From: Verrucomicrobiia bacterium
Lineage (GTDB): Bacteria > Verrucomicrobiota > Verrucomicrobiia > Limisphaerales > UBA1319
NCBI GenBank assembly: GCA_963664225.1
Contig: OY760937.1
Span: 5,134,744-5,198,743 of the forward strand
DNA: 64,000 nucleotides
Reading direction: 5' to 3'
In this document: one piece after another, positions 4,977 through 28,700 of the stretch
How the letters are laid out: each line of letters starts with the position of its first letter
Position numbering within the stretch: position 1 is the first letter of the stretch
The notes under the pieces: generated by a model
What the model saw: only the letters and a program-made list of their open reading frames with translations
Databases searched by the model: none
What the model was told of the DNA's origin: nothing
Program-made: the position numbers and the translations under genes

Positions 4977-5114
4977 CGCCCGCATGGCCGCGCCGCTCCT
5001 GAACGGAGGGGCGCGACCCGGGCAAATTTTAACCAGTCATAATCAAGTTCTCCCGGCGGGTGCGCGGGAGGAAAAACACTCGGTTAAACAACCAACAACA
5101 AAGGAAATACCAAC

Positions 5115-5408
5115 ATGGCTATGAACCTTAAACCGCTCGGAGATCGTATCCTCGTGGAACTGGTCGAAGAGAAGGAAGTTAAGAAGGGTGGCATCATCAT
5201 TCCCGATGCCGCGAAGGAAAAACCGACCGAAGCGACCGTTGTGGCGCTGGGCACGGGCAAGTTAGACGATCAGGGCAAGAAGATCGCTTTTGAAGTCAAA
5301 AAGGGCGACCGGGTGCTGATCAGCAAATATGGCGGTACGGATGTCAAAGTCGAGGGCAAGGAATACAAGCTGCTCAATAGCGACGACATCCTGGCGATCA
5401 TCGATTAA
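5115..5408 (+). CDS. groES: Co-chaperonin GroES
   Basis: 97 aa; typical Cpn10 sequence ([10 protein letters not shown]...GDRVL). Confidence 0.95.
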
Positions 5409-7094
<1,686 letters not shown>

Positions 7095-7127
7095 GTCCAA
7101 CCATCATTTCATCAAAATCGAATTCAC

Positions 7128-7157
7128 GAGGCTGGCTTCATGCCAGCCTCTTTTTTT
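7128..7157 (+). terminator. Rho-independent terminator after groEL
   Basis: GAGGCTGGC-ttcat-GCCAGCCTC hairpin followed by TTTTTTT. Confidence 0.7.
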
Positions 7158-7493
7158 GTACTAATGGGCGCGCGATGGGAATCTTTAGAAGTCGCCGGGA
7201 AGGGGAGGAAGGTGCTTGAATTGTGACGCACGATGTTGAAGCAGGATTCACGTAGAATTTCAAAAACGCGTAACGTGATTGTTTGACCCTGTGGATTGCT
7301 CTGATTCAATATCCAGGGTTGCAGTTCGCTTTTATGCGGAGGATTCCTGATGGCTTCTCCAGTACATGTTACCCGCCCCAAGAGCGCTGATTACGTTAAC
7401 TGCCAGCGGGCTTGAGGCGGGAAAGAGAGAGCGAAGTTCTCTCAAATTAGCATCGGGTGCCGCCCTGTTTGGGCAGCGCCCTGACTGTCTTGA

Positions 7494-8291
7494 TTATTTA
7501 GGCTCGGACACGACATTCATCTGCAATGTGACCGCAGTCTGGGCCAGCGCCCGGCCTTCCAGAGAGGCGCCGGTTTGCATTGCAATCGCGGTCTGGCACA
7601 AGATGATTCCCTTGAACTGAGCCGTCGTTCCAATGGTCGTTGCGCCGGCTATCTGCCAGAAGACGTTCTTGGCCTGGGCGCCGCCGGTCAGGGTGACAAT
7701 GGCCCCGTTGCCGACGGTCAGCCCCTGCGCTATCTGGAAGATCCAGACCGCATTAGCGTCCCCTTGGGCGTCGAGTGTGACCGCGGTGGGAATGAGCACC
7801 GGTGTGGCCCATTTGTAGAGGCCCGGAGCGATTCGCATCCCGTCAATATTTCCGGCCCCGAGTTCAACGGCAGCGGGTAACGTCCGGCCCGCAGCGTCAG
7901 TGTATGCGGTTTCCATGGCGCTGACCGCCGCAGTCAATAAAACGGGGTAGGTCACCTTGCAAGCGGGACCCGCAGCGTCCACGGTGTAGATGGTCCCGGT
8001 TACTTCCGCGCAGCCCAGGCCCGTAATGGCAGCACCGGTGATTGGACTTGTTCCAATATTGCCAGTGATGGCAGAGGAAGGAACATCGGTGACTCCTGTT
8101 TTGGAGAGAATCGCAAAACTGCCGGCCCAACCGAGATCAACCGGCGCCAGAGCAGCCATTCCTGCGGAGGCACTGGAGAGCAACGCCAAGAGGGCGGCCA
8201 TCAAACTGATGGAGATTTTATTATTCGACGCTGTGCAGATAAGCGGCGCGGGTGCGCCTACGGTTTGTTTTACCTCTTGATTGTTATGCAT
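7494..8291 (-). CDS. Secreted ice-binding-like protein (DUF3494 family)
   Basis: 265 aa; signal peptide; Thr/Gly/Ala-rich beta-solenoid-like sequence with a VTLDAQGDANAVWIFQI motif typical of the DUF3494 ice-binding family. Confidence 0.6.
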   Translation of the reverse strand: MHNNQEVKQTVGAPAPLICTASNNKISISLMAALLALLSSASAGMAALAPVDLGWAGSFAILSKTGVTDVPSSAITGNIGTSPITGAAITGLGCAEVTGTIYTVDAAGPACKVTYPVLLTAAVSAMETAYTDAAGRTLPAAVELGAGNIDGMRIAPGLYKWATPVLIPTAVTLDAQGDANAVWIFQIAQGLTVGNGAIVTLTGGAQAKNVFWQIAGATTIGTTAQFKGIILCQTAIAMQTGASLEGRALAQTAVTLQMNVVSEPK

Positions 8292-8742
8292 GTGATTTTT
8301 TTGTTTTGATGATTAATTATTTAACCAACTGCATGAGAGTGGACCGGGAGGCGCGCGGGGTCTATTCAGGGGTATACCCCGGGGGACTTCCCCCCATCGG
8401 AGGTTTGCTCAAGGATCGCGAAACCGCGACGCGAGTGTTCACCCCATGGTTTGATGCGGTTCTGATCATCCTTGTTTGCAGTGATAGCATCCCTGAATCC
8501 TGAAGTTTCGACAAAAAGGGCTGAAGTTCCATCCTCAGAAGGCACCGCTTATAAATCAACCGGAACATCCGACATGCATATTTCAGAATCGAGAGGACTT
8601 CCAATTCTGAACTTTGGCGTCCTTTATTTTGAGATAACCCGCTTTTTTTGGAATAAAGCGGGTATTGACACATTTAGACAGGTTCTATACCATGTCCAAG
8701 CTTGTCCAAATAGTGGGACAAAAAGTCTTAATTTAAGAAAAA

Positions 8743-9450
8743 ATGCAGCTCACGGTAAGAGATGTCGCTGAATTGCTGAACGTTTCCGAAAAAAGCGTTT
8801 ACCGATGGATTACAGACGGGAATTTGCCCGCCTATCGCGTCAGCGGGCAGTACCGTTTTAACCGCGCAGAGCTGTTGGAATGGGCCACTGCAAAGAAGAT
8901 TAACGTTTCTCCCAAAATATTTGAGGAGAGCGAGGCGGGGGCCGGGGAGTTGCCTGATTTGGCGGATGCTTTGCAGGCAGGCGGGATTTACTACCGCATG
9001 GGCGGCAACGACAAGGCAGGCGTCCTGCGGGGGATTGTGGACGCAATGCGATTGCCCGATGAGGTGGACCGCAATTTCCTGTTGCAGGTTTTGATGGCGC
9101 GCGAGGCGTTGGAATCGACGGCGATCGGGGATGGAATCGCGATTCCACATGTGCGAAATCCGATTGTTCTGCATGTGGCCAAACCGATGGTGATGCTGAG
9201 CTTTCTTGAAAAGCCGGTGGCTTTTGGAGCGTTGGACGGGCAGCCGGTCCACACGCTTTTCTCCCTGGTAAGTCCCACCGTGCGGTCACATTTGCATTTA
9301 TTATCGCGGATAGCGTTTGCGCTCCGGGACCCGGGATTTAAGGAAATCGTTCTGCGACAGGGAAGTCGGGAAGAAATCCTGGAAGGGGTAAAGCGGGTTG
9401 GAAGTGGGAAGAAGACTCCCACTGAGGTTGTCAGCCAGGAGCGTCAATGA
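8743..9450 (+). CDS. Putative transcriptional regulator: HTH (MerR/excisionase type) + PTS EIIA type-2 domain
   Basis: N-terminal VRDVAELLNVSEKSVYRWI HTH; C-terminal domain with EIIA-2/EIIA-Ntr signature GDGIAIPHVRNP (phosphorylatable His). Its stop overlaps the start of hyfB-like gene. Confidence 0.65.
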   Translation: MQLTVRDVAELLNVSEKSVYRWITDGNLPAYRVSGQYRFNRAELLEWATAKKINVSPKIFEESEAGAGELPDLADALQAGGIYYRMGGNDKAGVLRGIVDAMRLPDEVDRNFLLQVLMAREALESTAIGDGIAIPHVRNPIVLHVAKPMVMLSFLEKPVAFGALDGQPVHTLFSLVSPTVRSHLHLLSRIAFALRDPGFKEIVLRQGSREEILEGVKRVGSGKKTPTEVVSQERQ

Positions 9451-11441
9451 GCCTTTTGTTGCTGGCAATGGGGATTTGGGTGGGAAGTGGGCTGATGGCC
9501 TTGTTTTTTCCACATAATCCCAAACTGGCAACGGCAGTGGGCGCTTGGGGGTTGATTGCGGGCGCGATTTTGGCGGTTTTTCCTGTAGTTCGTGTTCTCA
9601 TGGGGGGGGCGGTTGGAGAGAGCCGCCTCCCGATGAGCCTGCCTGGAGGCAGTTTTTTCATTCAGTTGGACGCGCTTTCCGCGTGGTTCATTCTTCCAAT
9701 GCTGTTGCTTCTAGTTGCAGCCGCCCTCTATGCCGTGGATTACATGGCCGCGTTTCGAGAACGGCACTTGGGGGTTCCCGCCTTATTCTTTAACCTGCTG
9801 GCCACCAGCATGGTGATGGTCGTTTTGTCCCGCAACGCGGTGCTCTTCCTGATGTCATGGGAGGTGATGTCGGTGACCTCTTTTTTCCTGGTAACCTTCG
9901 AAGATGAAAAGCCCAAAGTGCGCGAGGCGGGTTGGGTGTACTTGATCGCAACCCATTTGGGGACGGCTTCCATTTTTGTCCTTTTTGTCTTGATGGGTCG
10001 CGAGGCTGGCTCGATGGATTTCGATAAGTGGGCGGCGATGGGGACAATTGGAACATGGCCCGGAGGAATGGCGGGGTCGATGTTTATTCTGGCGGTGATC
10101 GGGTTCGGCACCAAGGCGGGTTTCATGCCTTTTCATGTGTGGCTGCCTGAGGCGCATCCGGCGGCGCCAAGCCATGTCTCGGCCGTCATGTCTGGAGTGA
10201 TGATCAAGACGGGGGTTTATGGGGTATTGCGGATGCTCACGTATTTGGGAACGCCCGCCGCATGGTGGGGCTGGTTACTTTTGGGGGTGGGTCTGGTGTC
10301 GGGAATATTGGGGGTGATCAATGCGCTCGCGCAGCACGACTTGAAGCGGTTGCTGGCGTATAGCAGCGTGGAGAATGTGGGGATCATGACCATCGGCATG
10401 GGTATCGGAGTCCTGGGCATTTCGATGGCGGCCCCTGCGGTTGCGATTTTGGGCTTCAGCGCCTGTCTGCTTCATTTTGCGAATCATGCCATGTTCAAGG
10501 GCCTTCTGTTTCTGGGGGCTGGCAGCATTTTGCACGTGACTGGCACGCGGCAAATGGATCGGCTGGGCGGTTTGCTGAAAAAAATGCCGGTGACGGGTTT
10601 ATGCTTTTTGCTGGGGGTGGTGGCAATCTGCGGGCTGCCGCCGATGAACGGATTTATTGGGGAGGTCGTTCTTTTCATGGCGGGATTCAAGGCGGCAACC
10701 TCGCTGGAGCTGTCCAGGGCGATTGCGGGTGTGGCGGTGATTCTGGGAATGGGCTTGATCGGCGGTCTGGCCGTGGTCTGTTTTACTAAAGCCTTCGGAA
10801 TCGTTTTTCTCGGGGAACCGCGGGGCGGGGAGGAACAACATGCCCACGAGAGTGGAAGGTGGATGCAGACGGGCATGGCGATCCTGGTTTGCGCCTGCAT
10901 TTGCGCCAGTCTGGCAGCGCCCATCCTCATCCGCAAAGCCAGTGAGATCGCGGCTGGAATGGGGCGGTACGATCACAACGCTGCAGTGTTGAATCTGGCG
11001 GCGTTTTCGAATGTCATGAACCTGGTGGTCCTGGTTTTTCTCGTCCTCGGATTGCTTATTGCGTTGTTGGTCTGGATGCGTTCACGTTTGCTGTCAGGTC
11101 GCAAGATTGAATCGGCCGCCACATGGGGCTGCGGTTACGTGGCGTCCTCGTCACGGGTGCAATACACTGGCTCCTCGTTTGTTCAGCCGGCAACCATGCT
11201 CTATCGGTTGGTGCTAAGGATGCGACGCCGTTATTCCACGCCGAAAGGTTTTTTCCCGAGTCATTCCTCGTTTTTAAGTGAAACTCCGGATGTCTGGCAA
11301 CGGGTTATTTACGGACCGGCTTTTGCAAGCCTGGCAGCATGGTTGTCCAAGTTGCGATGGCTGCAACAGGGCCAGGTGCAGCTTTATGTGCTGTATATGG
11401 CGGCGACTTTGCTGGCGCTGCTGATCTGGAAGTTGGGCTGA
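9447..11441 (+). CDS. Formate hydrogenlyase subunit 3 / hydrogenase-4 component B-like antiporter subunit (NuoL/Mrp-like)
   Basis: 664 aa polytopic membrane protein; WLPEAHPAAPSHVSAVMSG and LLAYSSVENVG motifs of the complex I antiporter-like family. Confidence 0.85.
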   Translation: MSLLLLAMGIWVGSGLMALFFPHNPKLATAVGAWGLIAGAILAVFPVVRVLMGGAVGESRLPMSLPGGSFFIQLDALSAWFILPMLLLLVAAALYAVDYMAAFRERHLGVPALFFNLLATSMVMVVLSRNAVLFLMSWEVMSVTSFFLVTFEDEKPKVREAGWVYLIATHLGTASIFVLFVLMGREAGSMDFDKWAAMGTIGTWPGGMAGSMFILAVIGFGTKAGFMPFHVWLPEAHPAAPSHVSAVMSGVMIKTGVYGVLRMLTYLGTPAAWWGWLLLGVGLVSGILGVINALAQHDLKRLLAYSSVENVGIMTIGMGIGVLGISMAAPAVAILGFSACLLHFANHAMFKGLLFLGAGSILHVTGTRQMDRLGGLLKKMPVTGLCFLLGVVAICGLPPMNGFIGEVVLFMAGFKAATSLELSRAIAGVAVILGMGLIGGLAVVCFTKAFGIVFLGEPRGGEEQHAHESGRWMQTGMAILVCACICASLAAPILIRKASEIAAGMGRYDHNAAVLNLAAFSNVMNLVVLVFLVLGLLIALLVWMRSRLLSGRKIESAATWGCGYVASSSRVQYTGSSFVQPATMLYRLVLRMRRRYSTPKGFFPSHSSFLSETPDVWQRVIYGPAFASLAAWLSKLRWLQQGQVQLYVLYMAATLLALLIWKLG

Positions 11442-11444
11442 ACC

Positions 11445-12353
11445 ATGAACATCAGTGCGATACTTTCACTTCTGGTGGGTCTGGCTCTGGCGCCTTTGTT
11501 GCCGGGGATCATTAACCGCGTGAAGGCGAAGTTTGGCGGGCGGCGGGGCCAGCCCATTCTTCAAATGTATTTCGATCTCTGGAAGCTTCTTCACAAAGGC
11601 GCGGTTTACAGCCGCACGACAACCTGGGTGTTTCAGGCGGCGCCCATTGTTGGCCTGGCCGCGGTGATTGCAGCCATGCTGATTGTTCCCTTTGGAGGCG
11701 CGAACGCCCTGGTTGGTTTTCCCGGGGATCTGGTGCTCATGGCGGGGTTGCTGGGCCTGGGCCGGTTCTTCACGATGATTGCGGCATTGGATACAGGATC
11801 CAGTTTCGAGGGAATGGGGGCCAGCCGCGAAGCCCATTTTTCGGCGCTGGGGGAACCGGTTTTGCTCCTGGCATTGGCGGTCGTGGGACGCAAAACGGTT
11901 AGTTTTTCACTTTCCGACATATTTGGCGCGCTGACACCCTGGCACTGGGCGCAAAGCTTTGTGCCTCTGGCCCTGGTGGTGACGGTTCTTCTGGTGGTGA
12001 TGCTGGCGGAAAATGCGCGCATTCCCGTGGATGATCCCAATACCCATCTGGAGTTGACCATGATCCACGAGGTGATGGTGCTCGATCATGGCGGTCCTGA
12101 TTTTGCGTTTATCGTTTATGGAGCGGCCTTGAAACTCTGGCTGATGGGCGCGCTCTTGGTGAATGTGCTTCTGCCTATTCATTCAGGGCATCTCTGGATC
12201 GATCTGGCGGTGGGTGTCATCGGCATGTGTGGTGTGGCGGTGGTGGTCGGCATCATTGAGTCGATCATGGCACGATTGCGCTTGTTATTTGTGCCCCAGT
12301 TGTTGGTTGGGGCGGGGGTCATGGCGGCGGTGGCCTTGGTGGTGATGCAATAG
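11445..12353 (+). CDS. Hydrogenase-4 component C / HycD-like membrane subunit (NuoH family)
   Basis: 302 aa; NuoH/HycD-like hydrophobic profile, and its position after the B-like gene. Confidence 0.8.
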   Translation: MNISAILSLLVGLALAPLLPGIINRVKAKFGGRRGQPILQMYFDLWKLLHKGAVYSRTTTWVFQAAPIVGLAAVIAAMLIVPFGGANALVGFPGDLVLMAGLLGLGRFFTMIAALDTGSSFEGMGASREAHFSALGEPVLLLALAVVGRKTVSFSLSDIFGALTPWHWAQSFVPLALVVTVLLVVMLAENARIPVDDPNTHLELTMIHEVMVLDHGGPDFAFIVYGAALKLWLMGALLVNVLLPIHSGHLWIDLAVGVIGMCGVAVVVGIIESIMARLRLLFVPQLLVGAGVMAAVALVVMQ

Positions 12354-12360
12354 GCCCTGT

Positions 12361-12996
12361 ATGGTTGATTTTATACTAATTTTGGTGGTGTTGACAAACT
12401 TCTGGCTCTTGGGGACGAGCCGGCTGGGTTCAAGTATTCGTGTGGTGGCTTTACAGGGTGTCCTGTTGGGCCTTCTGCCATTGGCGGCACATCTCCATGC
12501 CACTCCCATGCGTGTGATGGCTTTGGCGGCCGGGAGTATTCTGCTCAAGGGCATGGTTTTCCCACGGTTATTGTTTCGGGCCTTGCGCGAGGCGGATGTG
12601 ACGCGTGAAGCGGAGCCTTTTGTCGGTTACGTCCTCTCCCTTCTCATTGGGGTGATGGCGCTGGGTCTGTCGTTTTGGATGGGCGGCCGGTTGCGGATGG
12701 AAAGTCCGGTGGTCTCCGCCATGATCCTTCCCGTGGCCTTCTTCTCCCTCATGGCGGGATTCTTCCTGATTGTGGCGCGCAAAAAGGCGGTGCATCAGGT
12801 TCTTGGCTTTTTGGTGTTTGAAAACGGGGTTTACACTTTCGGTATTGGGGCGATGCAGGAAGCCACACTGCTGGTCGAACTGGGCATTCTACTGGATGTC
12901 TTCGTGGGTGTGTTTGTCATGGGTATCGCCATTTTTCACATCAGCCGCGAATTCGATCACACCGAGACGGATCGTTTGTCATCCCTGAAGGACTAA
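12361..12996 (+). CDS. Hydrogenase-4 component E-like membrane subunit
   Basis: 211-aa small polytopic membrane protein placed between the C-like and F-like subunits, as in hyf operons. Confidence 0.65.
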   Translation: MVDFILILVVLTNFWLLGTSRLGSSIRVVALQGVLLGLLPLAAHLHATPMRVMALAAGSILLKGMVFPRLLFRALREADVTREAEPFVGYVLSLLIGVMALGLSFWMGGRLRMESPVVSAMILPVAFFSLMAGFFLIVARKKAVHQVLGFLVFENGVYTFGIGAMQEATLLVELGILLDVFVGVFVMGIAIFHISREFDHTETDRLSSLKD

Positions 12997-12998
12997 GA

Positions 12999-14477
12999 AT
13001 GATCCCGGCATTGATACTGATTCCATTTTTCGCCGGTCTGGCGGCTTTTGCGCTCAGAATGACACAGGTGCGCCGGGGGTTGTTGGTCCTGGTGGCCGTG
13101 GTGCACTCCGCGCTGGTTCTATCCTGCTGGTTGCATCGGCCGGAGGCGGCATTGGGTGGCGGGCTGCAACTCGATTCGCTGGGCTTGATATTCCTATCCA
13201 TTGCCAGCGGGGTCTTTTTGGTGGCTTCCATTTACGCGCTAGGGTATTTGCGCATGCAACCTCTCCATCCGGAACCCGATCCAGAGGAGGGGCGGCTGTT
13301 CACCAACGCGCCCGAGGGGGTGTTTATTGGATGTTTGCTGATGTTTTTGTCCGCCATGACCCTGGTCACCACGAGCGAGCATTTGGGTTTGTTATGGATC
13401 GGGGTGGAAGCGACCACGCTGGCCAGCGCGCCGTTGATTTATTTCCATCGTCACCATCGGTCATTGGAAGCGGTGTGGAAGTATCTGTTGATTTGTTCAT
13501 TGGGCATTGCCCTGGCCTTGCTGGGCAATTTCTTTCTGGGTGTGGCGGGAACCCGTTTGCCCGATGGCGAGGACTCAATGATGGTTTCGGTCCTCGTCAA
13601 GAATGCCAGCCTGTTGCACGCGCCCTGGTTGCGCGCGGCGTTCATCCTGTTTTTAGTCGGTTACGGAACGAAGATGGGACTGGCCCCGCTGCACACATGG
13701 CTGCCGGACGCCTACAGCGAAGCCCCCTCCGTGGTCTCCGCGTTGCTATCCGGGGCGTTGTCGAATTGCGCTTTCCTGGGAGTCCTCCGGGTGCTGCAAA
13801 TCTGCGTGGCCGCGAACCAGGGCGATTTCGCCCGGGAATTGATGGTGATCATGGGACTGCTCTCGATGGGCGTGGCGGCAGTGTTCATTCTCAAACAGGC
13901 CGATTACAAGCGCCTTCTGGCTTATTCCAGCGTCGAGAACATGGGGATCATGAACCTCGGCGTGGGATTGGGCGGGGTGGGGGCCTTTGGTTCCATGCTT
14001 CACGCCGTGAACCATTCGCTTATCAAGACGATGCTGTTTTTGGTCGCGGGAAACATTCTGATGGTTTTCAAATCCAAATCCGTAAGCGCCGTTCGTGGCA
14101 TGTTCCGCGTAATGCCCGCATCCGGTGTTTTATGGATTGCTGGATTTTTGGCCATCACGGGCACGCCACCGTTCGGACCGTTCTTGAGCGAATTTACGAT
14201 TCTAAAAGCGGCCTTTGCGAATGGACGTTTTGTGGTGGGCGGCTTGTATATGTTTCTGTTGGCGGTGATTTTTATCGGTATGTCCACTGTCTTTCTGCGC
14301 ATGGCGCAAGGCACTCCTGATGCCTCCAATGCGGCGGACCGGGGCAGCCTTCATCCATTGATGATCTGGCCGCCGGCCGTGCTGTGCGTCGCGGTTTTGA
14401 TGTTGGGAGTCTATATTCCGCCAGCGTTGGCAGGTGTATTGATGGAGGCTGCAAAGACTGTGGGAGGCTTGGTATGA
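12999..14477 (+). CDS. Hydrogenase-4 component F-like antiporter subunit (NuoN/NuoM family)
   Basis: 492 aa; WLPDAYSEAPSVVSALLSG and LLAYSSVENMG antiporter-family motifs. Confidence 0.85.
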   Translation: MIPALILIPFFAGLAAFALRMTQVRRGLLVLVAVVHSALVLSCWLHRPEAALGGGLQLDSLGLIFLSIASGVFLVASIYALGYLRMQPLHPEPDPEEGRLFTNAPEGVFIGCLLMFLSAMTLVTTSEHLGLLWIGVEATTLASAPLIYFHRHHRSLEAVWKYLLICSLGIALALLGNFFLGVAGTRLPDGEDSMMVSVLVKNASLLHAPWLRAAFILFLVGYGTKMGLAPLHTWLPDAYSEAPSVVSALLSGALSNCAFLGVLRVLQICVAANQGDFARELMVIMGLLSMGVAAVFILKQADYKRLLAYSSVENMGIMNLGVGLGGVGAFGSMLHAVNHSLIKTMLFLVAGNILMVFKSKSVSAVRGMFRVMPASGVLWIAGFLAITGTPPFGPFLSEFTILKAAFANGRFVVGGLYMFLLAVIFIGMSTVFLRMAQGTPDASNAADRGSLHPLMIWPPAVLCVAVLMLGVYIPPALAGVLMEAAKTVGGLV

Positions 14478-15949
14478 GCAGCACCTCGGCCTGTGTGACG
14501 CATAACGCGGTGCCCGTGAAGTGGGTGGATATTTCCGTTCTGCCCATTGCGGATTTTCGCGCGGCCATTCTCCGGGAAGCCAGCCTCGGAAACCGAATGG
14601 CGGCTTTGTTTGGAATTCCATCGAAAGAGGGCGGTCTTAGATTGCTGGGTGTCATGGCCAATGGCGGTTCCAGCGCGTTATCGTTGTATTCGACACCGGT
14701 CAAGGATCGGTATCCATCATTGACTCCTGAGTGTCCTCAAGCGCAGGGGTTTGAGCGGGAGATATTCGAGCAATGGGGAGTGATGCCAGAGGGCCATCCG
14801 TGGCTTAAACCCGTGCGCGCCACCTCTTCTGCGACTTCGGCATCGCCGTTTTTTGTCGTGGATGGTGTTGAGGTTCATGAAGTGGCAGTTGGGCCGGTCC
14901 ATGCCGGAATCATCGAACCCGGTCATTTCCGTTTTCAATGCCACGGCGAGCAGGTGTTCCACCTGGAAATATCGTTAGGCTATCAACACCGGGGCATTGA
15001 GCGGCGCCTGGTCGGCGGGCCTGACCGTCGGACGATGCATTACATGGAGACCGCCGCAGGCGATACGACGGTCGGTCATGCCAGCGCCTATTGCCAGGCT
15101 GTCGAGGCGCTATCGGGATGCAACGTGTCAGCACGAGCCCAGGTTTTACGGGCCGTCGCGTTGGAACTGGAGCGTCTGGCCAATCATACCGGAGACCTCG
15201 GTGCAATGGCCGGGGACATCGGTTTTCTGCCCACCTCGTCGTTTTGCGGTCGGATTCGTGGCGATTTTCTCAATATGACCGCGCTGCTGTGCGGGAGTCG
15301 GTTTGGTCGGAATTTGGTGCAGCCCGGGGGTTTGGGATTCGAGGCGGAGCCGGAACGATTGGAAAAACTGGGCGCTCAATTGGACCGCGCATTGAAGGAT
15401 GTCACGGTTGCGTGTAACCTTCTTTGGAATACCACTACTGTGCGCGCGCGTTTTGAAAATACAGGCACCCTGAAAAATCAGGATTGTCTGGATCTGGGTC
15501 TGGTAGGTGTTGCGGCCAGGGCCTGCGGTGTCGAACGGGATGTGAGGCACGAGTTTTCCGGGGGAGCGTATCGGTTTTTCCAATTGCCTGTTTCGACCTT
15601 TAACTCCGGCAACGTATTCGGACGTGCATACGTCCGCTGGATGGAAATTCAACGTTCGATCGCCTTCATTAAGGATATGATTCGAACGATGCCTGGCGGC
15701 GAAATTCGTCAGCCGATGGATGAATTGGCGGCCGGTTCTCTGGTGGTTTCGATGGTTGAAGGATGGCGTGGGGAGATCTGCCATGTCGCCACCACGGACG
15801 ATGCGGGACGGTTCCGACATTATAAGGTAATCGATCCGTCCTTTCATAATTGGATGGGGTTGGCTTATGCAATGCGCGATCAGCAAATCTCCGATTTTCC
15901 GCTGTGTAACAAGAGTTTCAATCTTTCCTACTGTGGCCACGATCTTTAA
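14474..15949 (+). CDS. NuoC-NuoD-like 'large subunit' homolog (HycE/HyfG family) lacking the NiFe-binding cysteines
   Basis: Aligns to the HycE core (GPVHAGIIEPGHFRF ... LELERLANH), but the L1 motif RxCGxC is replaced by DTTV and the C-terminal DPCxxC is degenerate (NLSYCG). Start taken at the ATG overlapping the previous stop. Confidence 0.8.
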   Translation: MSSTSACVTHNAVPVKWVDISVLPIADFRAAILREASLGNRMAALFGIPSKEGGLRLLGVMANGGSSALSLYSTPVKDRYPSLTPECPQAQGFEREIFEQWGVMPEGHPWLKPVRATSSATSASPFFVVDGVEVHEVAVGPVHAGIIEPGHFRFQCHGEQVFHLEISLGYQHRGIERRLVGGPDRRTMHYMETAAGDTTVGHASAYCQAVEALSGCNVSARAQVLRAVALELERLANHTGDLGAMAGDIGFLPTSSFCGRIRGDFLNMTALLCGSRFGRNLVQPGGLGFEAEPERLEKLGAQLDRALKDVTVACNLLWNTTTVRARFENTGTLKNQDCLDLGLVGVAARACGVERDVRHEFSGGAYRFFQLPVSTFNSGNVFGRAYVRWMEIQRSIAFIKDMIRTMPGGEIRQPMDELAAGSLVVSMVEGWRGEICHVATTDDAGRFRHYKVIDPSFHNWMGLAYAMRDQQISDFPLCNKSFNLSYCGHDL

Positions 15950-15955
15950 GAGGAC

Positions 15956-16759
15956 ATGATTAAAGCGCTTTTAGCACGAAAACAGCAGGGATGCCGAACA
16001 ATCGGTTATCCTGATTCCGCGCCGGTATTGCCGGAGCGTTTTCGCGGGCGGCCGTTGGTGGATGCCAACCTGTGCGAGCTGCAGTGTCACTCCTGCGTGG
16101 AGGCTTGTCCCACGGGCGCCATCGCCCTTTCCGGAAATCAATTGGAGTTTGATTTGGGGCGCTGCCTCTTTTGCCTGGATTGCTCAGAAGCATGTCCGAA
16201 AGGCGCGATCCAACATTCCAAGGATCACAGCATGGCTGCGCGGCGCCGGTCGGATTTGGTCGTCCGCAACGGGACGACTCAGGCCCTGGCAAAGGCTTTG
16301 GACGCCCAGTCTCAAAAGGTCTTCGGACATTCCCTGAAGCTGCGCCAGGTCAGCGCTGGTGGATGCAACGCGTGCGAGGCGGATGTCAACGTTTTGGGAA
16401 CCGTTGTGTTCGATCTGGGGCGTTTTGGCATTCAATTTGTGGCCTCGCCCCGTCATGCCGACGGTATTCTGGTGACAGGTCCGGTAACAGCTAATATGCG
16501 TCTGGCGCTGGAAAAGACCTTTGAAGCCATTCCGTCCCCGAAATTTGTGATTGCCGTTGGCGCATGCGCGATTTCTGGAGGCCCTTTTGTGGATCATAAG
16601 GAAGTGAATAACGGCGCGGAAAATGTGATTCCGGTCGATTTGTTCATACCTGGCTGCCCGCCGCATCCCATCACCATTTTGGATGGTTTATTGCGGTTGC
16701 TTGGGCGATTGCAGGAGCCCGCTCAGGCGGTTTCCAGCGAAAAGGCGGCTCTGACATGA
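15956..16759 (+). CDS. Fused 2x[4Fe-4S] ferredoxin (HycF/NuoI-like) and small subunit (HycG/NuoB-like)
   Basis: N-terminus has two CxxCxxCxxxCP motifs; C-terminus has NuoB-like GGCNAC...SPRHADGILVTG...GACAISGG...PGCPP cluster-binding motifs. Confidence 0.8.
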   Translation: MIKALLARKQQGCRTIGYPDSAPVLPERFRGRPLVDANLCELQCHSCVEACPTGAIALSGNQLEFDLGRCLFCLDCSEACPKGAIQHSKDHSMAARRRSDLVVRNGTTQALAKALDAQSQKVFGHSLKLRQVSAGGCNACEADVNVLGTVVFDLGRFGIQFVASPRHADGILVTGPVTANMRLALEKTFEAIPSPKFVIAVGACAISGGPFVDHKEVNNGAENVIPVDLFIPGCPPHPITILDGLLRLLGRLQEPAQAVSSEKAALT

Positions 16760-16844
16760 GGCGCTGTAATTTAAAAAAACTGACTTTAGCCGTGGTTGGG
16801 CTTAAAACTGAGCCTTACCCGGTTATTTATCCGAGTTGTTTGTG

Positions 16845-17252
16845 ATGAAAAATGTAATCGAAATTTTGTATAGCCTTCAACAGTTGGAACTGGGAGGTGA
16901 GTCTGATTCTCCGAAGACAGCGGAGGAGATTAGTAATTTGCGCAAAGGCGTGCCAACGCCGATCATGGGGCATTACGACCGGTTGAGGGCTCGTGGAAAG
17001 AAAGGAGTGGCGATTGTCCGCAATTCCGTCTGCACCGAGTGCCATATGAAGCTGGCCACCGGCATTAATGCCGAACTGATTCGCGCCGAAGACATTCTGA
17101 TCTGCGATAGTTGCGGGCGTTACTTGCTGGCCGCAAACGAATCGGCGGAATCCTCCGTCGAAGTCGCGCCTCCGGTTGAAACAGCGCCGGTCGCCAAGAA
17201 GAAAGCCGTTCGCAAACGGACCAAGAAATCCGAACTTCCTGCCGCATCTTGA
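16845..17252 (+). CDS. C4 zinc-ribbon domain protein
   Basis: About 135 aa; CTECHMKL...CDSCGRYL paired Cys motifs (zf-RING_7-like); Lys-rich C-terminus. Confidence 0.5.
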   Translation: MKNVIEILYSLQQLELGGESDSPKTAEEISNLRKGVPTPIMGHYDRLRARGKKGVAIVRNSVCTECHMKLATGINAELIRAEDILICDSCGRYLLAANESAESSVEVAPPVETAPVAKKKAVRKRTKKSELPAAS

Positions 17253-17492
17253 AATAGCTGCGATTTAAGAAGAAGGCTCGCCGGGCGGGCAACGATCAAT
17301 GTCGTTTCCCTGCGGAGTTGTTTTTGCAGTTTCTTCAGTTGTTGATGGCTGCTTTTGCGCTTTTGGAGCGCAGTTGTGCCGCATTTGATTCAAAACTCAG
17401 GCTTCAACAGCCATTCCTGATCCACACGGCCCGTCGCTAATGCTGCTGCTCCAGTAATGCAGACAATCTAATAATAGGTATTACTCTAAATA

Positions 17493-17520
17493 TTGACTTT
17501 GGCGCATTCACCCTTATATT
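17493..17520 (+). promoter_or_regulatory. Sigma-70-like promoter (TTGACT-N16-TATATT), with an overlapping AT-rich near-palindrome as a candidate Fur box
   Basis: Near-consensus -35/-10 elements about 60 nt upstream of the Fur-family gene; TAATAGGTATTA imperfect palindrome just upstream. Confidence 0.45.
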
Positions 17521-17578
17521 GCCCCAAGGTGAATACGAGTCGGAATGATGAGTTGACTGGAACTGAGGGTCGCGAGCG

Positions 17579-18065
17579 AATGGCCACCAATGGTTACCGC
17601 TTGACGCCACAGCGCAGACAGGTTTACAGCATTCTGCTGAACCAGAGGGATCATCCCACCGCCAACGAGGTTTTCCTCAGGGCCAAGCAGGTCATGCCCG
17701 ATATCTCCATGGCCACGGTTTATAACTGTCTCGACGCGCTGGTGGAATGCGGTTTGGTGCGCCAAGTCAATCTGGACCGGTCGGCAACCCGTTTTTGTCC
17801 GAATATGGATCCGCATTGTCACTTCTTTTGCGAGAAGTGCGGTCACATATTTGACATCGATTTCGATCCTCAATCCATGCGCACCGAGGTGAGCATTCCG
17901 GCAGGATTCGAGGTGACGCATTTTGGACTGGCCTTGCGCGGGAAATGCCCTCAATGCGCGGCGACGGCGCACCCGCAACCGACCCGCAAAGATCAGGGTC
18001 CGACCGATGAACCTTCAATGGCTGCCAACGAGACAGCCCTTGGCAATGGCGCCCGAGGCGATTAA
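17579..18065 (+). CDS. Fur-family metalloregulator (Fur/Zur/PerR)
   Basis: YRLTPQRRQVYSIL winged-helix, HCHFFCEKCGHIFD metal-binding region; sits immediately upstream of sufB. Confidence 0.8.
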
Positions 18066-18181
18066 GTCGGTTCCAATGCAAATACTTGGGCGGAATTTTG
18101 ACAAACCTCTGAAGTGCGTTAAGTTAACATTGGAATGAGAATTAGTCTCAATATTGAATCACGGAAGCATTTTGAAATCGC

Positions 18182-19639
18182 ATGAACTCTGGCACTGAAA
18201 GCACTGAAACCATCGATCAATTCGTTCAAGGCGAGTATAAATTTGGCTTTGTTACGCAGATTGATTCGGACGCGGCACCCATCGGCCTGACCGAAGACAC
18301 GGTTCGGTTTATTTCGGCCAGGAAGAACGAACCGCCGTTTCTGCTGGAGTGGCGTCTGAAAGCTTACCGGCACTGGCTGACGATGAAACCGCCGGTGTGG
18401 CCGAATGTTCAATTTCCGCCGATCGATTATCAGAAAATAATTTTCTATTCGGCGCCCAAGCAGGCGAAGCCGGGACCCAAGAGCCTGGACGAGGTGGATC
18501 CCAAGCTGATTGAAACCTACAAGAAACTCGGCATTCCCTTGCATGAGCAAATGCGTCTGGCCGGAGTGGCCGTGGATGCGGTGTTCGATAGCGTGAGCGT
18601 GGCCACCACGTTCAAGGAAAAGCTCAGCGAGCTTGGAGTCATCTTTTGTTCCTTCTCCGAGGCGGTGCGCGAGCATCCCGACCTGGTGCGCAAGCATTTG
18701 GGATCGGTGGTTCCGCACACGGATAATTATTATGCGGCCTTGAATTCGGCGGTATTCAGCGACGGCTCATTTTGTTACATCCCCAAGGGGGTGCGATGCC
18801 CGATGGAACTCTCCACCTATTTCCGCATTAACGCGGCGAATACAGGACAGTTCGAACGCACTCTCATCGTCGCCGAGCCGGGAAGCTATGTGAGTTATCT
18901 GGAGGGTTGCACGGCGCCCATGCGGGATGAAAACCAACTGCACGCCGCCGTGGTGGAATTGGTCGCGATGGACGATGCGGAGATCAAATACTCCACGGTG
19001 CAGAACTGGTATCCAGGCGATGAGCAGGGCAAGGGCGGCATCTACAATTTCGTGACCAAACGCGGCATGGCCCGGGGACGGAACTCGAAAATATCGTGGA
19101 CTCAGGTCGAGACGGGCTCGGCGATTACATGGAAATATCCGAGTGTCGTTCTCCTGGGCGACAATTCGACAGGTGAGTTTTACTCGGTGGCCCTGACCAA
19201 TCATTACCAGCAGGCCGACACGGGAACCAAGATGATCCACATTGGCAAGAATACGCGCAGCACCATAGTCTCCAAGGGTATTTCCGCCGGTCATGGCCAG
19301 AACAGTTACCGGGGACTCGTGAAGGTGATGAAAGGCGCCGATGGGGCGCGCAATTATTCGCAATGCGATTCGCTGCTGCTGGGCGACAAGTGCGGCGCGC
19401 ATACGTTCCCCTATATCGAGACCATGAATCCGACCGCGCAGGTGGAGCACGAGGCCTCCACATCGAAGATTGGCGAGGACCAGATCTTTTATTGCAATCA
19501 GCGCGGCCTGGATACCCAGGATGCGGTAAGCATGATTGTCAATGGATATTGCAAGGAAGTGTTCAAGCATCTGCCGATGGAGTTTGCGGTGGAGGCCCAG
19601 AAGCTTCTCGGGGTGAGTTTGGAAGGCAGCGTGGGTTGA
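18182..19639 (+). CDS. sufB: Fe-S cluster assembly protein SufB
   Basis: 485 aa; strong SufB similarity throughout. Confidence 0.93.
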
Positions 19640-19672
19640 CGCAGAAAGAAATTACAGAAGGAAAATTGAATT

Positions 19673-20431
19673 ATGTTGGAAATCAAGAATCTGACGGCGC
19701 GAATCGGCGATAAGGAAATTTTGCGAGGCATTAATCTCTCGGTGAAACCCGGAGAAGTGCATGCGATCATGGGGCCCAATGGCAGCGGTAAAAGCACGCT
19801 GGCACAGGTGTTGGTTGGGCGTCCCGAGTATCAGGTGACCGCCGGAGAAGTCGTCTATCAGGGGAAGGATCTCTTGGGATTGAAGCCCGAGGAACGCGCG
19901 CGGGAAGGGGTATTTCTCGCTTTCCAGTATCCGGTGGAAATTCCTGGAGTGAACTGCACCTATTTTTTGAAAACGGCATTGAATGCGGTCAGAAAACATC
20001 GCGGGTTGGAGCCTTTGGACGCCATCGATTTTCTGGCCCACATCAAGGACAAGATGAAGCTGCTCGAATTGGATCAGGCGCTGTTGAACCGCCCGGTCAA
20101 CGAGGGTTTCTCCGGCGGCGAGAAGAAGCGCAACGAAGTGTTTCAGATGGCTGTTCTCGAGCCTTCGCTGGCGATCCTGGATGAAACAGATTCCGGCCTG
20201 GACATCGATGCCTTGCGGATTGTGGCCGAGGGCGTCAACCGCCTCAAGCGGCCGACTCAGGCTCAGATCGTCATCACGCACTATCAACGCCTGCTCAACT
20301 ATATCGTGCCCGATTTTGTGCACGTGCTTTACAACGGGCGCATCGTCAAGAGCGGCGGCAAGGAACTGGCTCTGGCCCTTGAGGAAAAGGGTTATGACTG
20401 GATCATTGATGAAGTCGGTGTGAAGAATTGA
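19673..20431 (+). CDS. sufC: Fe-S cluster assembly ATPase SufC
   Basis: 252 aa; Walker A GPNGSGKST; SufC family. Confidence 0.93.
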   Translation: MLEIKNLTARIGDKEILRGINLSVKPGEVHAIMGPNGSGKSTLAQVLVGRPEYQVTAGEVVYQGKDLLGLKPEERAREGVFLAFQYPVEIPGVNCTYFLKTALNAVRKHRGLEPLDAIDFLAHIKDKMKLLELDQALLNRPVNEGFSGGEKKRNEVFQMAVLEPSLAILDETDSGLDIDALRIVAEGVNRLKRPTQAQIVITHYQRLLNYIVPDFVHVLYNGRIVKSGGKELALALEEKGYDWIIDEVGVKN

Positions 20432-20437
20432 TCCGGC

Positions 20438-21868
20438 GTGAAACCAACAGACGCTTTTATGAATTCGACAGGCACATTGGAAGCAACGGGAGTGAGGGAA
20501 TCGGATTATTTCCTGACGGAGTTCGAGCGGTTGCTTGCTTTGGAACCCCGTGAGACTCCGCTTTGGCTGCGCGCGATTCGCAAGTCAGGAATCGCCCATT
20601 TCGCGGATTCCGGTTTTCCAACCATGCGGGATGAGGAATGGAAATACACCAATCTGGAGATCTTGCGTGACAGGCAGTTTTTGACCGCTGTAAGTGATTC
20701 GGCATTGGAACCTACCGCCGCCGTTCTCGCGCGTGTGCCCTGGTTTAACACCATTCCACGGCGCGTTGTTTTTGTGAATGGACATTTTGCGTCCGGTTTA
20801 TCCAACTGCCCGGAGACTGATGGCGGACTTAAGATCTCGAGTTTGCGCAGGGCCATTCAGGAGGATCCCCGCGCGATCGAACATCATCTGGCCCGGTACG
20901 CTCTGCCATCGGACCAGCCATTCGTCGCCTTGAACACGGCCTTTTTCCAGGACGGCGCGTTCATTCACGCGGGAAAAAGCGTGGACGACCGGGTCCCGGT
21001 GCATTTGATATTCATTGCGACTCGTCCAGATGCTGGAGTGGCATTTCAAACCCGGAATTTGATTGTCGCGGAGGCGGACAGCCGGCTGGCGGTTGTGGAA
21101 ACCTATATCAGTCTGGGCGCTGAGCAGTATTTTACAAACAGCGTAAGCGAGATTGTTTTGGGCGAAAATGCGACGGTGGAGCATTTGAAAATCCAGCAGG
21201 AGAGCGCCGCAGCTTGTCACATGGCAACCATTCAGGCGCATCAAGCCGCAAACAGTCATTTTACATCCCATTCCATCGCGCTTGGCGCGCGGGTGGCGCG
21301 CAACGATATTCGCGCCGTTTTCGATGGATCCGGCGCGGAGTGCCTGATGAACGGACTCTACATTGCCTCGGATCATCAACTGACCGATCACCATACTGTG
21401 ATCGATCATGCGAAACCCAATTGCTCCAGTCATGAGCATTATCAGGGCATCATGGCGGGTTCGGCCCGTGGCGTGTTCAATGGAAAAATCTTTGTCCGCA
21501 AGGACGCCCAAAAAACGGACGCCAAACAGACCAATCGCAATCTGCTCCTTTCAGAAAACGCGGTGATCGATACCAAGCCCCAATTGGAAATCTTTGCCGA
21601 CGACGTGAAATGCACGCATGGCGCGACTGTGGGGCAACTGTCCCAAGAGGCGCTGTTCTATTTGCGTTCGCGGGGCATTGGCATCGAGGAGGCGCGGCGC
21701 ATGTTGATTCAAGCTTTTGCAAGCCAGGTATTGGGCCGCATTGGCATTCAAGGGGTGGTGCCGCTGTTGGAGAAGTGCATTTTGGAGATCATCGGCAGGA
21801 TCGAATTGCCGGACAACGCGACTAGTCATAAGAACGCCGTTTCCGATGAAAGGAGTTCCCATGCCTGA
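20438..21868 (+). CDS. sufD: Fe-S cluster assembly protein SufD
   Basis: 476 aa; SufB/SufD fold; gene order between sufC and sufU. Confidence 0.85.
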   Translation: MKPTDAFMNSTGTLEATGVRESDYFLTEFERLLALEPRETPLWLRAIRKSGIAHFADSGFPTMRDEEWKYTNLEILRDRQFLTAVSDSALEPTAAVLARVPWFNTIPRRVVFVNGHFASGLSNCPETDGGLKISSLRRAIQEDPRAIEHHLARYALPSDQPFVALNTAFFQDGAFIHAGKSVDDRVPVHLIFIATRPDAGVAFQTRNLIVAEADSRLAVVETYISLGAEQYFTNSVSEIVLGENATVEHLKIQQESAAACHMATIQAHQAANSHFTSHSIALGARVARNDIRAVFDGSGAECLMNGLYIASDHQLTDHHTVIDHAKPNCSSHEHYQGIMAGSARGVFNGKIFVRKDAQKTDAKQTNRNLLLSENAVIDTKPQLEIFADDVKCTHGATVGQLSQEALFYLRSRGIGIEEARRMLIQAFASQVLGRIGIQGVVPLLEKCILEIIGRIELPDNATSHKNAVSDERSSHA

Positions 21869-22313
21869 CGATCTGAACGAGCTTTATCAGGAGGTGATTC
21901 TTGACCACAGCAAGAACCCCAAGAATTTTGCGCCTTTGGATGATGCCAACCGCATGGCCCAGGGTCGAAATCCGGTTTGCGGTGATCAGGTGACCATCTT
22001 CATGAATGTGGAAGAGGGCGTGATCAAGGACATCACCTTTCAAGGCTCGGGTTGCGCCATTTCCAAGGCTGCGGCCTCGATGATGACCTCAAGCCTGAAG
22101 GGCAAGTCCATCGCCGAAGCCAAAACATTGTTCGATAAGGTGCAGGAGATTGTCACGACAGGGGAAGGCAACCTGGACGAAGTGGGCAAGCTGGCCGCGT
22201 TTGCCGGTGTGCACAAATTTCCGGCCCGCGTGAAGTGCGCCATGCTGCCATGGCGGGCGGCCATCGCGGCAATGGAGCACCCCGAAATCAAGGAGAATGT
22301 TACAACCGAGTAA
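21861..22313 (+). CDS. sufU: SUF-system NifU-like scaffold protein SufU
   Basis: 150 aa; NPVCGDQVTI...GSGCAISKA...AMLPW motifs with three conserved Cys; start overlaps the sufD stop. Confidence 0.85.
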   Translation: MPDDLNELYQEVILDHSKNPKNFAPLDDANRMAQGRNPVCGDQVTIFMNVEEGVIKDITFQGSGCAISKAAASMMTSSLKGKSIAEAKTLFDKVQEIVTTGEGNLDEVGKLAAFAGVHKFPARVKCAMLPWRAAIAAMEHPEIKENVTTE

Positions 22314-22316
22314 ATC

Positions 22317-22871: not shown

Positions 22872-22912
22872 CGGAGACGCATTGGAATGCGGGGGAATAT
22901 TACATTGAATCT

Positions 22913-24937: not shown

Positions 24938-26374
<1,437 letters not shown>

Positions 26375-26434: not shown

Positions 26435-26585
26435 ATGGTCTTCCGCTCATTTTGTCGGTTCTGCCCATCATTCTCGCCGACATCTCACTCCTGTAAGTAT
26501 TGATTCCGTTGCTTTCTTGAGGGCGCAGCCATCGAAAGGGGGCTGGTGCTCCCAAAATGTGTGCAAACCGAAAGTGTGGAGCTGC

Positions 26586-28620: not shown

Positions 28621-28700
28621 CTCCTCTCTACTCTACTGGATTCTTTGCAAAAAATGCCAATGGCCTTCAGAATTTGGCCAGCTTCCTGTTGCCCGTATTA

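Follow-up and report, generated by a model that had tools for sequence, protein, structure and literature searches.

We have found that a 64-kb stretch of genomic DNA from a Verrucomicrobiia bacterium (contig OY760937.1; called the window below, with positions counted from its first nucleotide) carries an operon that is an intact copy of the genes for an energy-converting hydrogenase-related (Ehr) complex, whose large subunit resembles that of membrane-bound [NiFe] hydrogenases and has lost all four ligands of the [NiFe] centre. That the complex is Ehr and not a NiFe hydrogenase can be stated with high confidence; it is a typical intact member of a known, functionally unsolved family and not a new kind of system. 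Ehr has been noted in genomes for about 20 years; evolutionary schemes place it between complex I and the membrane hydrogenases, and it is present in at least 600 species of many phyla. What is added here is the definition of the conserved unit as seven genes, a PtsN-like regulator with a promoter repeat, a pocket signature common to the whole superfamily, and the link to the rhizobial complex Hyq.

The seven-gene operon and its remodelled large subunit

The first-pass annotation of this DNA had described six tightly packed or overlapping genes for two antiporter-like subunits, a NuoH-like and a HyfE-like subunit, a large subunit and a fused small subunit, and both Pfam and NCBIfam agree with these assignments. 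The six open reading frames (ORFs) lie on the plus strand at 9447-16759, with intergenic distances of 3, 7, 2, -4 and 6 nucleotides (nt). While the six structural genes stand, the start of the unit had to be revised, because a regulator gene at 8743-9450 belongs to it; the conserved unit consists of seven genes, all full-length ORFs in the window, and starts at 8743, not at 9447. This seventh gene, the promoter repeat and the published work on rhizobial Hyq, a sister subfamily, were absent from the earlier annotation. The genes are as follows (lengths in amino acids, aa; E-values of the profile matches).

8743..9450, plus strand: regulator with HTH_17 and phosphotransferase system (PTS) EIIA-2 (PtsN-like) domains; its stop codon overlaps the next start codon (ATGA); Pfam and NCBIfam
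9447..11441, plus strand: EhrA, HyfB/NuoL-like antiporter-like subunit, 664 aa; Proton_antipo_M PF00361, 1e-55
11445..12353, plus strand: EhrB, NuoH/HyfC/HycD-like subunit, 302 aa; NADHdh PF00146, 7e-31
12361..12996, plus strand: EhrC, HyfE-like subunit, 211 aa, C-terminal half NuoK-like; NCBIfam HyfE, 1e-21, and PF00420, 4e-5, both below cut-off
12999..14477, plus strand: EhrD, HyfF/NuoM/N-like antiporter-like subunit, 492 aa; PF00361, 2e-48
14474..15949, plus strand: EhrL, NuoC::NuoD/HycE-like large subunit, 491 aa; Complex1_30kDa and Complex1_49kDa (PF00346, 1e-33)
15956..16759, plus strand: EhrS, fusion of a NuoI/HycF-like ferredoxin and a NuoB/HycG-like protein; Fer4 families and Oxidored_q6 PF01058, 7e-28

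EhrA matches the NCBIfam HyfB profile over its full length with 596-597 bits against an equivalog cut-off of 667, and EhrD matches the HyfF profile with 365 bits, also below cut-off. Because all matches to NCBIfam equivalog models are of this kind, the proteins should be regarded as relatives of Hyf, Hyc and Nuo subunits and not as members of those families.

The evidence that carries the Ehr assignment comes from EhrL. Its best sequence match in the PDB is Escherichia coli HycE (7z0s_E, 1e-36), followed by Thermus Nqo4 and Pyrococcus MbhL, and an AlphaFold2 model (predicted template modelling score 0.82) again has HycE 7z0s_E as its top fold match (TM-score 0.78). When EhrL is aligned with HycE, HyfG and NuoCD, the L1 stretch reads ETAAGDTTVGH where HycE has DRVCGICGFAH, so that both L1 Cys are replaced, and the L2 stretch reads NLSYCGHDL-stop where HycE has DPCYSCTDR, with Ser and Gly at the two Cys positions; the C-terminal tail motif is PLCNKSFNLSYCGHDL-stop. 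The four NiFe ligands are replaced by Ala, Thr, Ser and Gly, and the sole Cys of the L2 stretch is offset by one position from the ligand site. The first-pass claims that the large subunit cannot hold a canonical [NiFe] centre and that DPCxxC has degenerated to NLSYCG are therefore borne out, and the loss of the L1 motif, described there as replacement by DTTV, is real in substance and better written AGDTTV in extent. Since the L1 stretch contains no Cys at all, no re-alignment yields four NiFe ligands, and no alternative alignment with four Cys was found. Hidden Cys ligands were rejected on this ground and because the nearby tail Cys occupy non-ligand positions that vary between subfamilies; selenocysteine read-through was rejected because the EhrL gene ends in TAA and the L2 positions precede this stop. 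EhrL, whose start at ATG 14474 is consistent with the N-termini of homologues, ends where mature HycE and NuoCD end. HycE and HyfG have 32 more residues, which are removed in maturation, and EhrL therefore offers nothing for a HycI-type protease to cleave.

A word-indexed protein search with EhrL gave at least 8,000 significant candidates, the best 120 of which are 60-97% identical to it, and in 20 homologues (61-97% identical) ETxAGDTTxGH and DFPLCNKSFNLSYCGHDL are invariant. Two EhrL peptide signatures were found in the genomes of at least 600 species with EhrL identities of 50-62%, and the phyla and families concerned include Verrucomicrobiota, Planctomycetota, Geobacteraceae, Desulfovibrionaceae, Acidobacteriota, Spirochaetota, Elusimicrobiota and Chlamydiota; the closest homologues among the species genomes listed belong to Verrucomicrobiota metagenome-assembled genomes (MAGs; 61-62%). 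EhrL is 50-97% identical over at least ten phyla with dozens of invariant residues, and a family that stays more than 50% identical over more than 600 species is under strong selection and is not a relic. In a library of representatives of 50%-identity clusters, 837 proteins matched EhrL below 1e-30, and a derived signature, ExxxGD[ST].. with P[LIV]xNKSFxLSY[C/S/A]GxDL-stop, is carried by nearly all full-length sequences among the best 150 representatives. In nearly all of the aligned cluster representatives the four ligand positions are occupied by Ala/Ser, Thr/Ser, Ser and Gly and not by Cys, and the tail Cys vary (position 487 is C, S or A; position 478 is C, I, N or V).

In a neighbour-joining tree, EhrL groups with sequences of Verrucomicrobia, Geothrix, Geomonas limicola and Desulfovibrionaceae, with E. 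coli HycE and HyfG as the outgroup. The Ehr assignment made at first pass is in line with this placement beside Geobacteraceae Ehr, and no clustering with bona fide H2-evolving group-4 enzymes was seen in the tree. All features that define Ehr are present: a large subunit homologous to group-4 enzymes and NuoD, without the L1/L2 CxxC motifs and without quinone ligands; a NuoB-like subunit with four Cys; and NuoH-like and Mrp/NuoL-type antiporter-like subunits encoded together. The absence of the complex-I quinone head-group ligands is reportedly among the criteria for Ehr in Marreiros 2013. The corresponding marks of group-4 [NiFe] hydrogenases are lacking, as there are no four Cys, no C-terminal extension and no hyp or hycI genes in the window or recurring beside homologues.

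The nearest relatives that retain four Cys have ERVCGACSFSH and NKSFNLCYSCTDR (NLCYSCTDR) and are 37-39% identical to EhrL. The nearest of these, on the metagenome contig with P0276 (L167, 394-4950), has the same gene order with separate genes for a ferredoxin (114 aa) and NuoB (158 aa). Because these two genes are adjacent and separate there, EhrS of the window represents a fusion of the two, and this locus likely marks the ancestral state before the Cys loss and the gene fusion. Another locus, on plasmid 3 of Variovorax sp. PBL-E5 (L086), has two Ehr/Hyf-like clusters side by side (3857-11141 and 14553-19380), the first of which encodes a Cys-less large subunit 41.6% identical to EhrL and a fused 4Fe-4S::NuoB gene, without a regulator of the HTH-EIIA type.

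In EhrS, a 2x[4Fe-4S] ferredoxin domain (about residues 1-105) with eight invariant Cys (CxxxCxxCxxxCP and CxxCxxCxxxCP) is followed by a NuoB/HycG-like domain (about residues 125-255), whose four Cys in GGCNAC, GACA and PGCPP are invariant alongside HycG, HyfI and NuoB. All 12 Fe-S cysteines (8 + 4) are kept, which agrees with the first-pass statement on the NuoB-like cluster cysteines; that annotation is to be corrected in that the N-terminal ferredoxin domain is itself the HycF/NuoI equivalent. The three Fe-S sites, as predicted from these ligands, form a chain that ends at the invariant pocket in the position of the NiFe site. The residues of the pump part are also retained: EhrA keeps Glu139 of transmembrane helix (TM) 5, Lys223 of TM7, Lys254 of TM8 and Glu406 of TM12; EhrD keeps TM5 Glu137, TM7 Lys225 and TM12 Glu398, with Asn256 in TM8 as in HyfF; and EhrB has the invariant R33, G35, Q40, D44, E137, D196 and E203 common to HycD, HyfC and NuoH. 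A 3-residue insertion in EhrB (HLELTMIHE) was found only in other Ehr sequences and in rhizobial HyqC.

The regulator gene, the promoter repeat and the genomic neighbourhood

The Ehr complex travels with its own PtsN-like regulator gene and a promoter repeat, both of which are new here. The regulator has an N-terminal helix-turn-helix domain of the excisionase/BldC type (HTH_17 PF12728, 7e-17, with matches to BldC and excisionase models) and a C-terminal EIIA-2 domain (PF00359, 4e-22; NCBIfam PtsN TIGR01419, 2e-16). The best PDB matches of the latter are PtsN proteins, with which the phospho-histidine motif GIAIPH is aligned, and His136 is at least 95% conserved in 31 homologues. In about 45 of the 60 genome loci the gene, which overlaps the first structural gene (of the ehrA type) by 4 nt in the window, immediately precedes the complex, with a median identity of 53%. 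When, reciprocally, the regulator was used as the query against metagenome contigs, a HyfB-like gene came next in 59 of the 63 loci whose sequence extends far enough downstream; of the remaining four, two carry EhrL and EhrS further on. On a Geopsychrobacteraceae chromosome (L076, about 1320-2950), there are apparently two divergent HTH-EIIA paralogues with a TGTCCAA repeat (2238-2254) between them.

Upstream of the regulator gene in the window, two further elements can be given.

8665..8693, plus strand: candidate sigma-70-like promoter, TTGACA-17 nt-TACCAT; consensus scan, 10 of 12 matches
8693..8709, plus strand: direct repeat TGTCCAA-GCT-TGTCCAA with a 10-bp period, candidate operator; overlaps the -10 element and the transcription start

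The promoter scan is not significant by itself (7 sites against 5.4 expected), and a TTGACA box lies about 25 nt 5' of the repeat in the window and in the loci L001, L002, L003, L006 and L076. The TGTCCAA direct repeat begins 50 nt 5' of the regulator ATG, directly 3' of the promoter-like site, and has this single match in the 64-kb window. The looser form of the repeat, TGTC-N6-TGTC at about -49 from the regulator start, is present in 15 of the 32 genome loci and in 42 of the 78 metagenome loci, the background frequency being 0.002 per 180 nt, and the stricter TGTCCAA pattern was confined to the position at about -49 in the loci scanned (8 loci). An inverted repeat, TTGTCC-N8-GGACAA (8701-8720), was rejected as the operator, because it is not conserved elsewhere and the direct repeat is the conserved element. 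Neither a sigma-54 -24/-12 element nor a NifA upstream activating sequence was found upstream of the operon, and an Rfam scan of the window for a riboswitch or leader gave only a group II intron elsewhere.

We consider that the regulator and the repeat probably constitute a circuit, in which TGTCCAA would be the operator of the co-encoded regulator. BldC and excisionases, the relatives of its HTH_17 domain, bind direct repeats. Against this assignment, about half of the loci lack the strict repeat, and the binding itself is inferred from co-conservation. The repeat could alternatively serve a different direct-repeat-binding regulator, such as a PhoB/OmpR-type response regulator, since it resembles the Pho box, a direct repeat of TGTCA-type heptamers, in being tandem and containing TGTC. 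We regard this as rather improbable: the period is 10 bp and not 11, the unit is TGTCCAA, the distance to the regulator start codon is fixed across very different phyla, the repeat occurs nowhere else in the window or the loci, and the N-terminal domain of the co-encoded regulator matches models of known direct-repeat binders. The PtsN-like regulator and the repeat provide handles on the conditions under which the complex is used, namely nitrogen or carbon status sensed via the PTS.

Other genes around the operon do not extend the unit. Among about 50 window ORFs scanned (64 kb), none was assigned to hyp, hycI, fdh, HycB/HyfA, nuoEFG or a second hydrogenase, as had been noted at first pass for formate dehydrogenase, HycB-like and hyp genes, and the genes for formate dehydrogenase and the HycB/HyfA ferredoxin are absent also from 80 related loci. 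No recurrent neighbour, whether of the formate dehydrogenase, NuoEF, Hdr, hyp or nif type or any other, emerged when about 1,140 ORFs from 80 loci were clustered all against all and 110 flanking ORFs were assigned to Pfam families; no extra gene family reaches more than 6 of the 80 loci, and the most frequent Pfam family is seen in 4 of the 110 ORFs. With no conserved partner gene nearby, the cassette stands on its own, and the electron donor must either be soluble or have its gene at another site.

In the window, a Zn_ribbon_9 (CdsZ-like) gene (16836-17252) lies 76 nt 3' of EhrS, followed by a terminator-like hairpin (17310-17329). It may be co-transcribed with the operon here and in a close relative (L081), and it is outside the conserved unit, with a homologue in 4 of 80 related loci. 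At 17493-24181, directly downstream of this Fe-S-demanding operon, there are a gene for a Fur/PerR-family regulator and then sufB, sufC, sufD, FeS_assembly_P and sufS. Both the Fur/PerR-suf cluster and the Zn-ribbon gene were rejected as parts of the system, as their adjacency to Ehr is not conserved elsewhere. The upstream genes of the window include nusA, lpxI, dnaK and groES/EL, and an ice-binding-like PF11999 protein gene (7494-8291, minus strand) is just upstream of the operon. Farther away, a group II intron (26500-28700) is located between genes for glutamate dehydrogenase (24950-26374) and a MatE transporter (28593-30113), with RF02005 at 26711-26944, a reverse-transcriptase/maturase ORF at 27164-28504 and RF00029 (domains V/VI) at 28532-28636. 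A 734-aa protein (33064-35268) has an N-terminal sigma factor domain of the extracytoplasmic function type (regions 2 and 4) and a long C-terminal extension without assigned function, and two large ORFs (35309-38173 and 62009-63616, both minus strand; 954 aa and 535 aa) have no Pfam match.

Possible function and competing explanations

That the pocket, the Fe-S chain and the residues of the pump are all conserved is a strong argument for an active pump driven by redox chemistry. On balance we slightly favour the view that the complex is a ferredoxin-linked, ion-translocating oxidoreductase, a small complex-I-like machine derived from a group-4 [NiFe]-hydrogenase, for which quinone is the most likely partner. 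The exposed NuoI-like 2x[4Fe-4S] domain of EhrS would be the docking site of a soluble low-potential carrier, probably ferredoxin or flavodoxin; a ferredoxin-type donor is suggested because no other input module is present, and docking of ferredoxin has precedents in Ech, Mbh and photosynthetic NDH-1. Electrons would then pass to the NuoB-type [4Fe-4S] cluster, whose ligands are present, and on to a remodelled polar pocket at the EhrL/EhrS/EhrB interface, marked by an invariant Gly-Asp-Thr/Ser in place of CGxC and Asn-Leu-Ser-Tyr-x-Gly in place of DPCxxC. The membrane quinone pool would be the most likely acceptor, and the reaction might be reversible, with quinol-to-ferredoxin transfer driven by the proton-motive force. 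The redox step would drive ion translocation via EhrB, EhrC and the two antiporter-like subunits, in which the key Glu and Lys are intact. Judging from co-conservation, the protein with HTH_17 and PtsN-like EIIA domains would bind the TGTCCAA repeat over the promoter and control expression, with phosphorylation of the conserved His by the nitrogen-type PTS as a possible switch.

Quinone as the partner is a tentative choice. It is preferred because the complex retains the NuoB/NuoD/NuoH interface of which the quinone chamber is made, and because two to three antiporter-like subunits fit the large ferredoxin-quinone span better than that between ferredoxin and protons, an argument which rests on the known energetics of Ech/Mbh and complex I. 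It is preferred also because the physiology of the sister complex Hyq is tied to the respiratory membrane (PMC3357923).

Several points weigh against the quinone-linked pump and the framework around it. The substrate is not readable from sequence. Riflemargulisbacteria reported to carry Ehr, of unspecified subfamily, have no identifiable quinone biosynthesis (PMC6349859). The quinone head-group ligands of complex I are replaced in EhrL, His38 of Nqo4 by Ile147 and Tyr87 by Gly196 (phmmer alignment, 2fug_4), and the beta1-beta2 loop is hydrogenase-like (HAGIIEPGHFRF) and keeps the Glu of hydrogenase proton transfer. The AlphaFold2 model does not give the pocket geometry, as the predicted local distance difference test (pLDDT) score is below 50 in the pocket loops 138-150, 367-379 and 471-491. 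As for the assignment to Ehr, the Geobacteraceae side of the comparison consists of Geomonas limicola and Geobacter MAG homologues, with the GSU0739-0745 proteins of Geobacter sulfurreducens outside it.

The explanation that survives best beside quinone reduction is a ferredoxin-driven or redox-gated ion pump whose acceptor is neither quinone nor protons, such as a small oxidant, soluble or membrane-associated, that would be handled in the new polar pocket (for example a disulfide, or sulfane sulfur as used by Pyrococcus MBS); MBS is a precedent of a hydrogenase-derived complex with a new acceptor. The pocket is unlike those of hydrogenase and complex I and yet invariant, and most subfamilies keep one or two tail Cys with shifting positions. 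The variability of positions 487 and 478 speaks against this reading, no conserved neighbour comes from sulfur or thiol metabolism, and all four NuoB-type cluster ligands are present, whereas the proximal cluster of MBS is site-differentiated. Although Ehr has been reported in hosts without recognisable quinone synthesis (PMC6349859), we consider such an acceptor unlikely. Equally low is the probability we give to a joint proposal, that the pocket (Gly-Asp-Thr/Ser, Asn-Leu-Ser-Tyr-x-Gly and the retained proton-transfer Glu) might be a new catalytic or coupling site for a substrate that is neither H+/H2 nor a quinone held as in complex I, in a complex-I-like ion pump switched by the nitrogen-type PTS via the PtsN-HTH fusion on TGTCCAA repeats. 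If this is true, the PTS switch would make membrane energetics and the provision of low-potential electrons dependent on carbon and nitrogen status, in parallel to NifA control of hyq.

That the window complex is a genuine hydrogenase whose catalytic site is unconventional, without NiFe or with other ligands, and that it oxidises or evolves H2 at the cytoplasmic face in coupling to the quinone pool, as claimed for Hyq, is very unlikely. In its favour, hyq deletion slowed diazotrophic growth, and from comparing mutants the Hyq authors hold Hyq responsible for high microaerobic H2 evolution (PMC2650096, PMC3357923); HyqG and EhrL have a common pocket signature, and the proton-transfer Glu is kept. 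An indirect origin of these H2 phenotypes is conceivable, such as a change in how nitrogenase is supplied with electrons, and no assay of the isolated enzyme turned up in the sections of these reports consulted. The Hyq authors themselves doubt the NiFe site (PMC3357923), and in the Ehr sequences there is no Cys at any of the four ligand positions, no maturation extension, and no hyp or protease gene in the window or conserved nearby.

Finally, a decaying remnant of a hydrogenase, as stated for G. sulfurreducens KN400 in a 2026 paper that regards ehr as without function and able to accumulate mutations freely (PMC13194489), accounts for the lost metal ligands and is scarcely credible, since seven ORFs are intact and full length, the Fe-S ligands, the pump residues and the replacement residues of the pocket themselves are invariant over at least ten phyla, a dedicated regulator and promoter repeat are co-conserved, and G. 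sulfurreducens Ehr subunits have been detected as proteins (PMC7894505); the degree of conservation is incompatible with a relic reading of Geobacter Ehr.

Comparison with known systems

E. coli formate hydrogenlyase and hydrogenase-4 (Hyf) are among the closest known systems: HycE is the best structural and sequence match of EhrL, the beta1-beta2 loop EPGHFR is common to both, and the HyfB, HyfE and HyfF profiles best match the membrane subunits. The window complex has neither the four NiFe Cys nor the HycI-processed C-terminal extension of these enzymes, and the operon lacks HycB/HyfA, FdhF, HyfD, hyp, hycH/hyfJ and hycI. HycF and HycG are separate proteins in E. coli, whereas they are fused in the window.

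Respiratory complex I, considered here together with ferredoxin-dependent NDH-1 or Fpo-type relatives, has in common with the window the core subunits of the NuoB, C, D, H, I and L/M/N types, the N2-type ligands and the Glu and Lys of the antiporter-like subunits, and EhrL ends at the same residue as NuoCD. NuoEFG, NuoA and a separate NuoJ are present there and not in the window, and its quinone ligands His38 and Tyr87 are replaced in EhrL. Its NuoB has a tandem CC, whereas the first two N2 ligands in the window are CxxC, as in hydrogenases.

The Ehr complex was reportedly first described in G. sulfurreducens as GSU0739-0745 (Coppi 2005) and later generalised (Marreiros et al. 2013), both as cited in subsequent papers, and the names ehrA-1, ehrA-2, ehrB, C, D, L and S are used for that species (PMC7894505, PMC13194489). 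Its subunits vary in abundance with the electron donor, being higher on formate than under hydrogen-containing conditions (PMC7894505). The function is treated as unknown in several reports (PMC6349859, PMC10284858, PMC7894505, 10.1101/765248), and no assigned biochemical function or structure appears in the literature found up to 2026, as the first-pass annotation had said of its substrate and role. The subunit set of G. sulfurreducens is the same as in the window (antiporter-like EhrA and EhrD, EhrB, EhrC, a small Fe-S subunit and a large one that lacks the NiFe ligands), and Geobacteraceae homologues are 53-56% identical to the window EhrL and group with it. In the Geomonas locus the order is R, A-1, A-2, B, C, D, L, S, in agreement with the ehr names used for G. 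sulfurreducens, with the HTH-EIIA gene first as in the window. Geobacteraceae differ in having a second HyfB-like gene (ehrA-2), some of their loci have the regulator and ehrA-1 in opposite orientation to the remaining genes, and the strict TGTCCAA repeat was not seen upstream of Geobacteraceae loci.

Hyq is known as hyqRBCEFGI of Azorhizobium caulinodans and other diazotrophic alpha-proteobacteria. The hyq operon is induced by NifA through a NifA/sigma-54-dependent promoter (PMC2650096, PMC3357923), and its authors propose a bidirectional 'endo-hydrogenase' while calling the NiFe site 'uncertain, if not unlikely' (PMC3357923). We compared it via the plasmid copy of Rhizobium leguminosarum. 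The NifA and sigma-54 promoter elements of hyq have no counterpart upstream of the window operon. HyqR is a 129-aa HTH protein without EIIA, whereas the window regulator carries EIIA, and no similarity between the two regulators is detectable. HyqI is NuoB-only (177 aa), whereas EhrS has the extra 2x[4Fe-4S] domain, and HyqG is only 33% identical to EhrL, with Cys that correspond to the published Cys-491 and Cys-497 and a tail Cys located elsewhere than in EhrL. Common features are seven genes in the order R, B, C, E, F, G, I with overlapping starts as in the window, the same 3-residue insertion in HyqC as in EhrB, and a HyqG signature as in EhrL (GDST; PLCNKSFNCSYSGHDL), of the general form GD[ST][ST] and PLCNKSFNxSYxGHDL-stop. 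Judged by these sequence features, Hyq is a sister subfamily with the same pocket signature and not the same family, and rhizobial Hyq, the only member with genetics, thus falls in the same signature-defined superfamily as the Ehr complex of the window.

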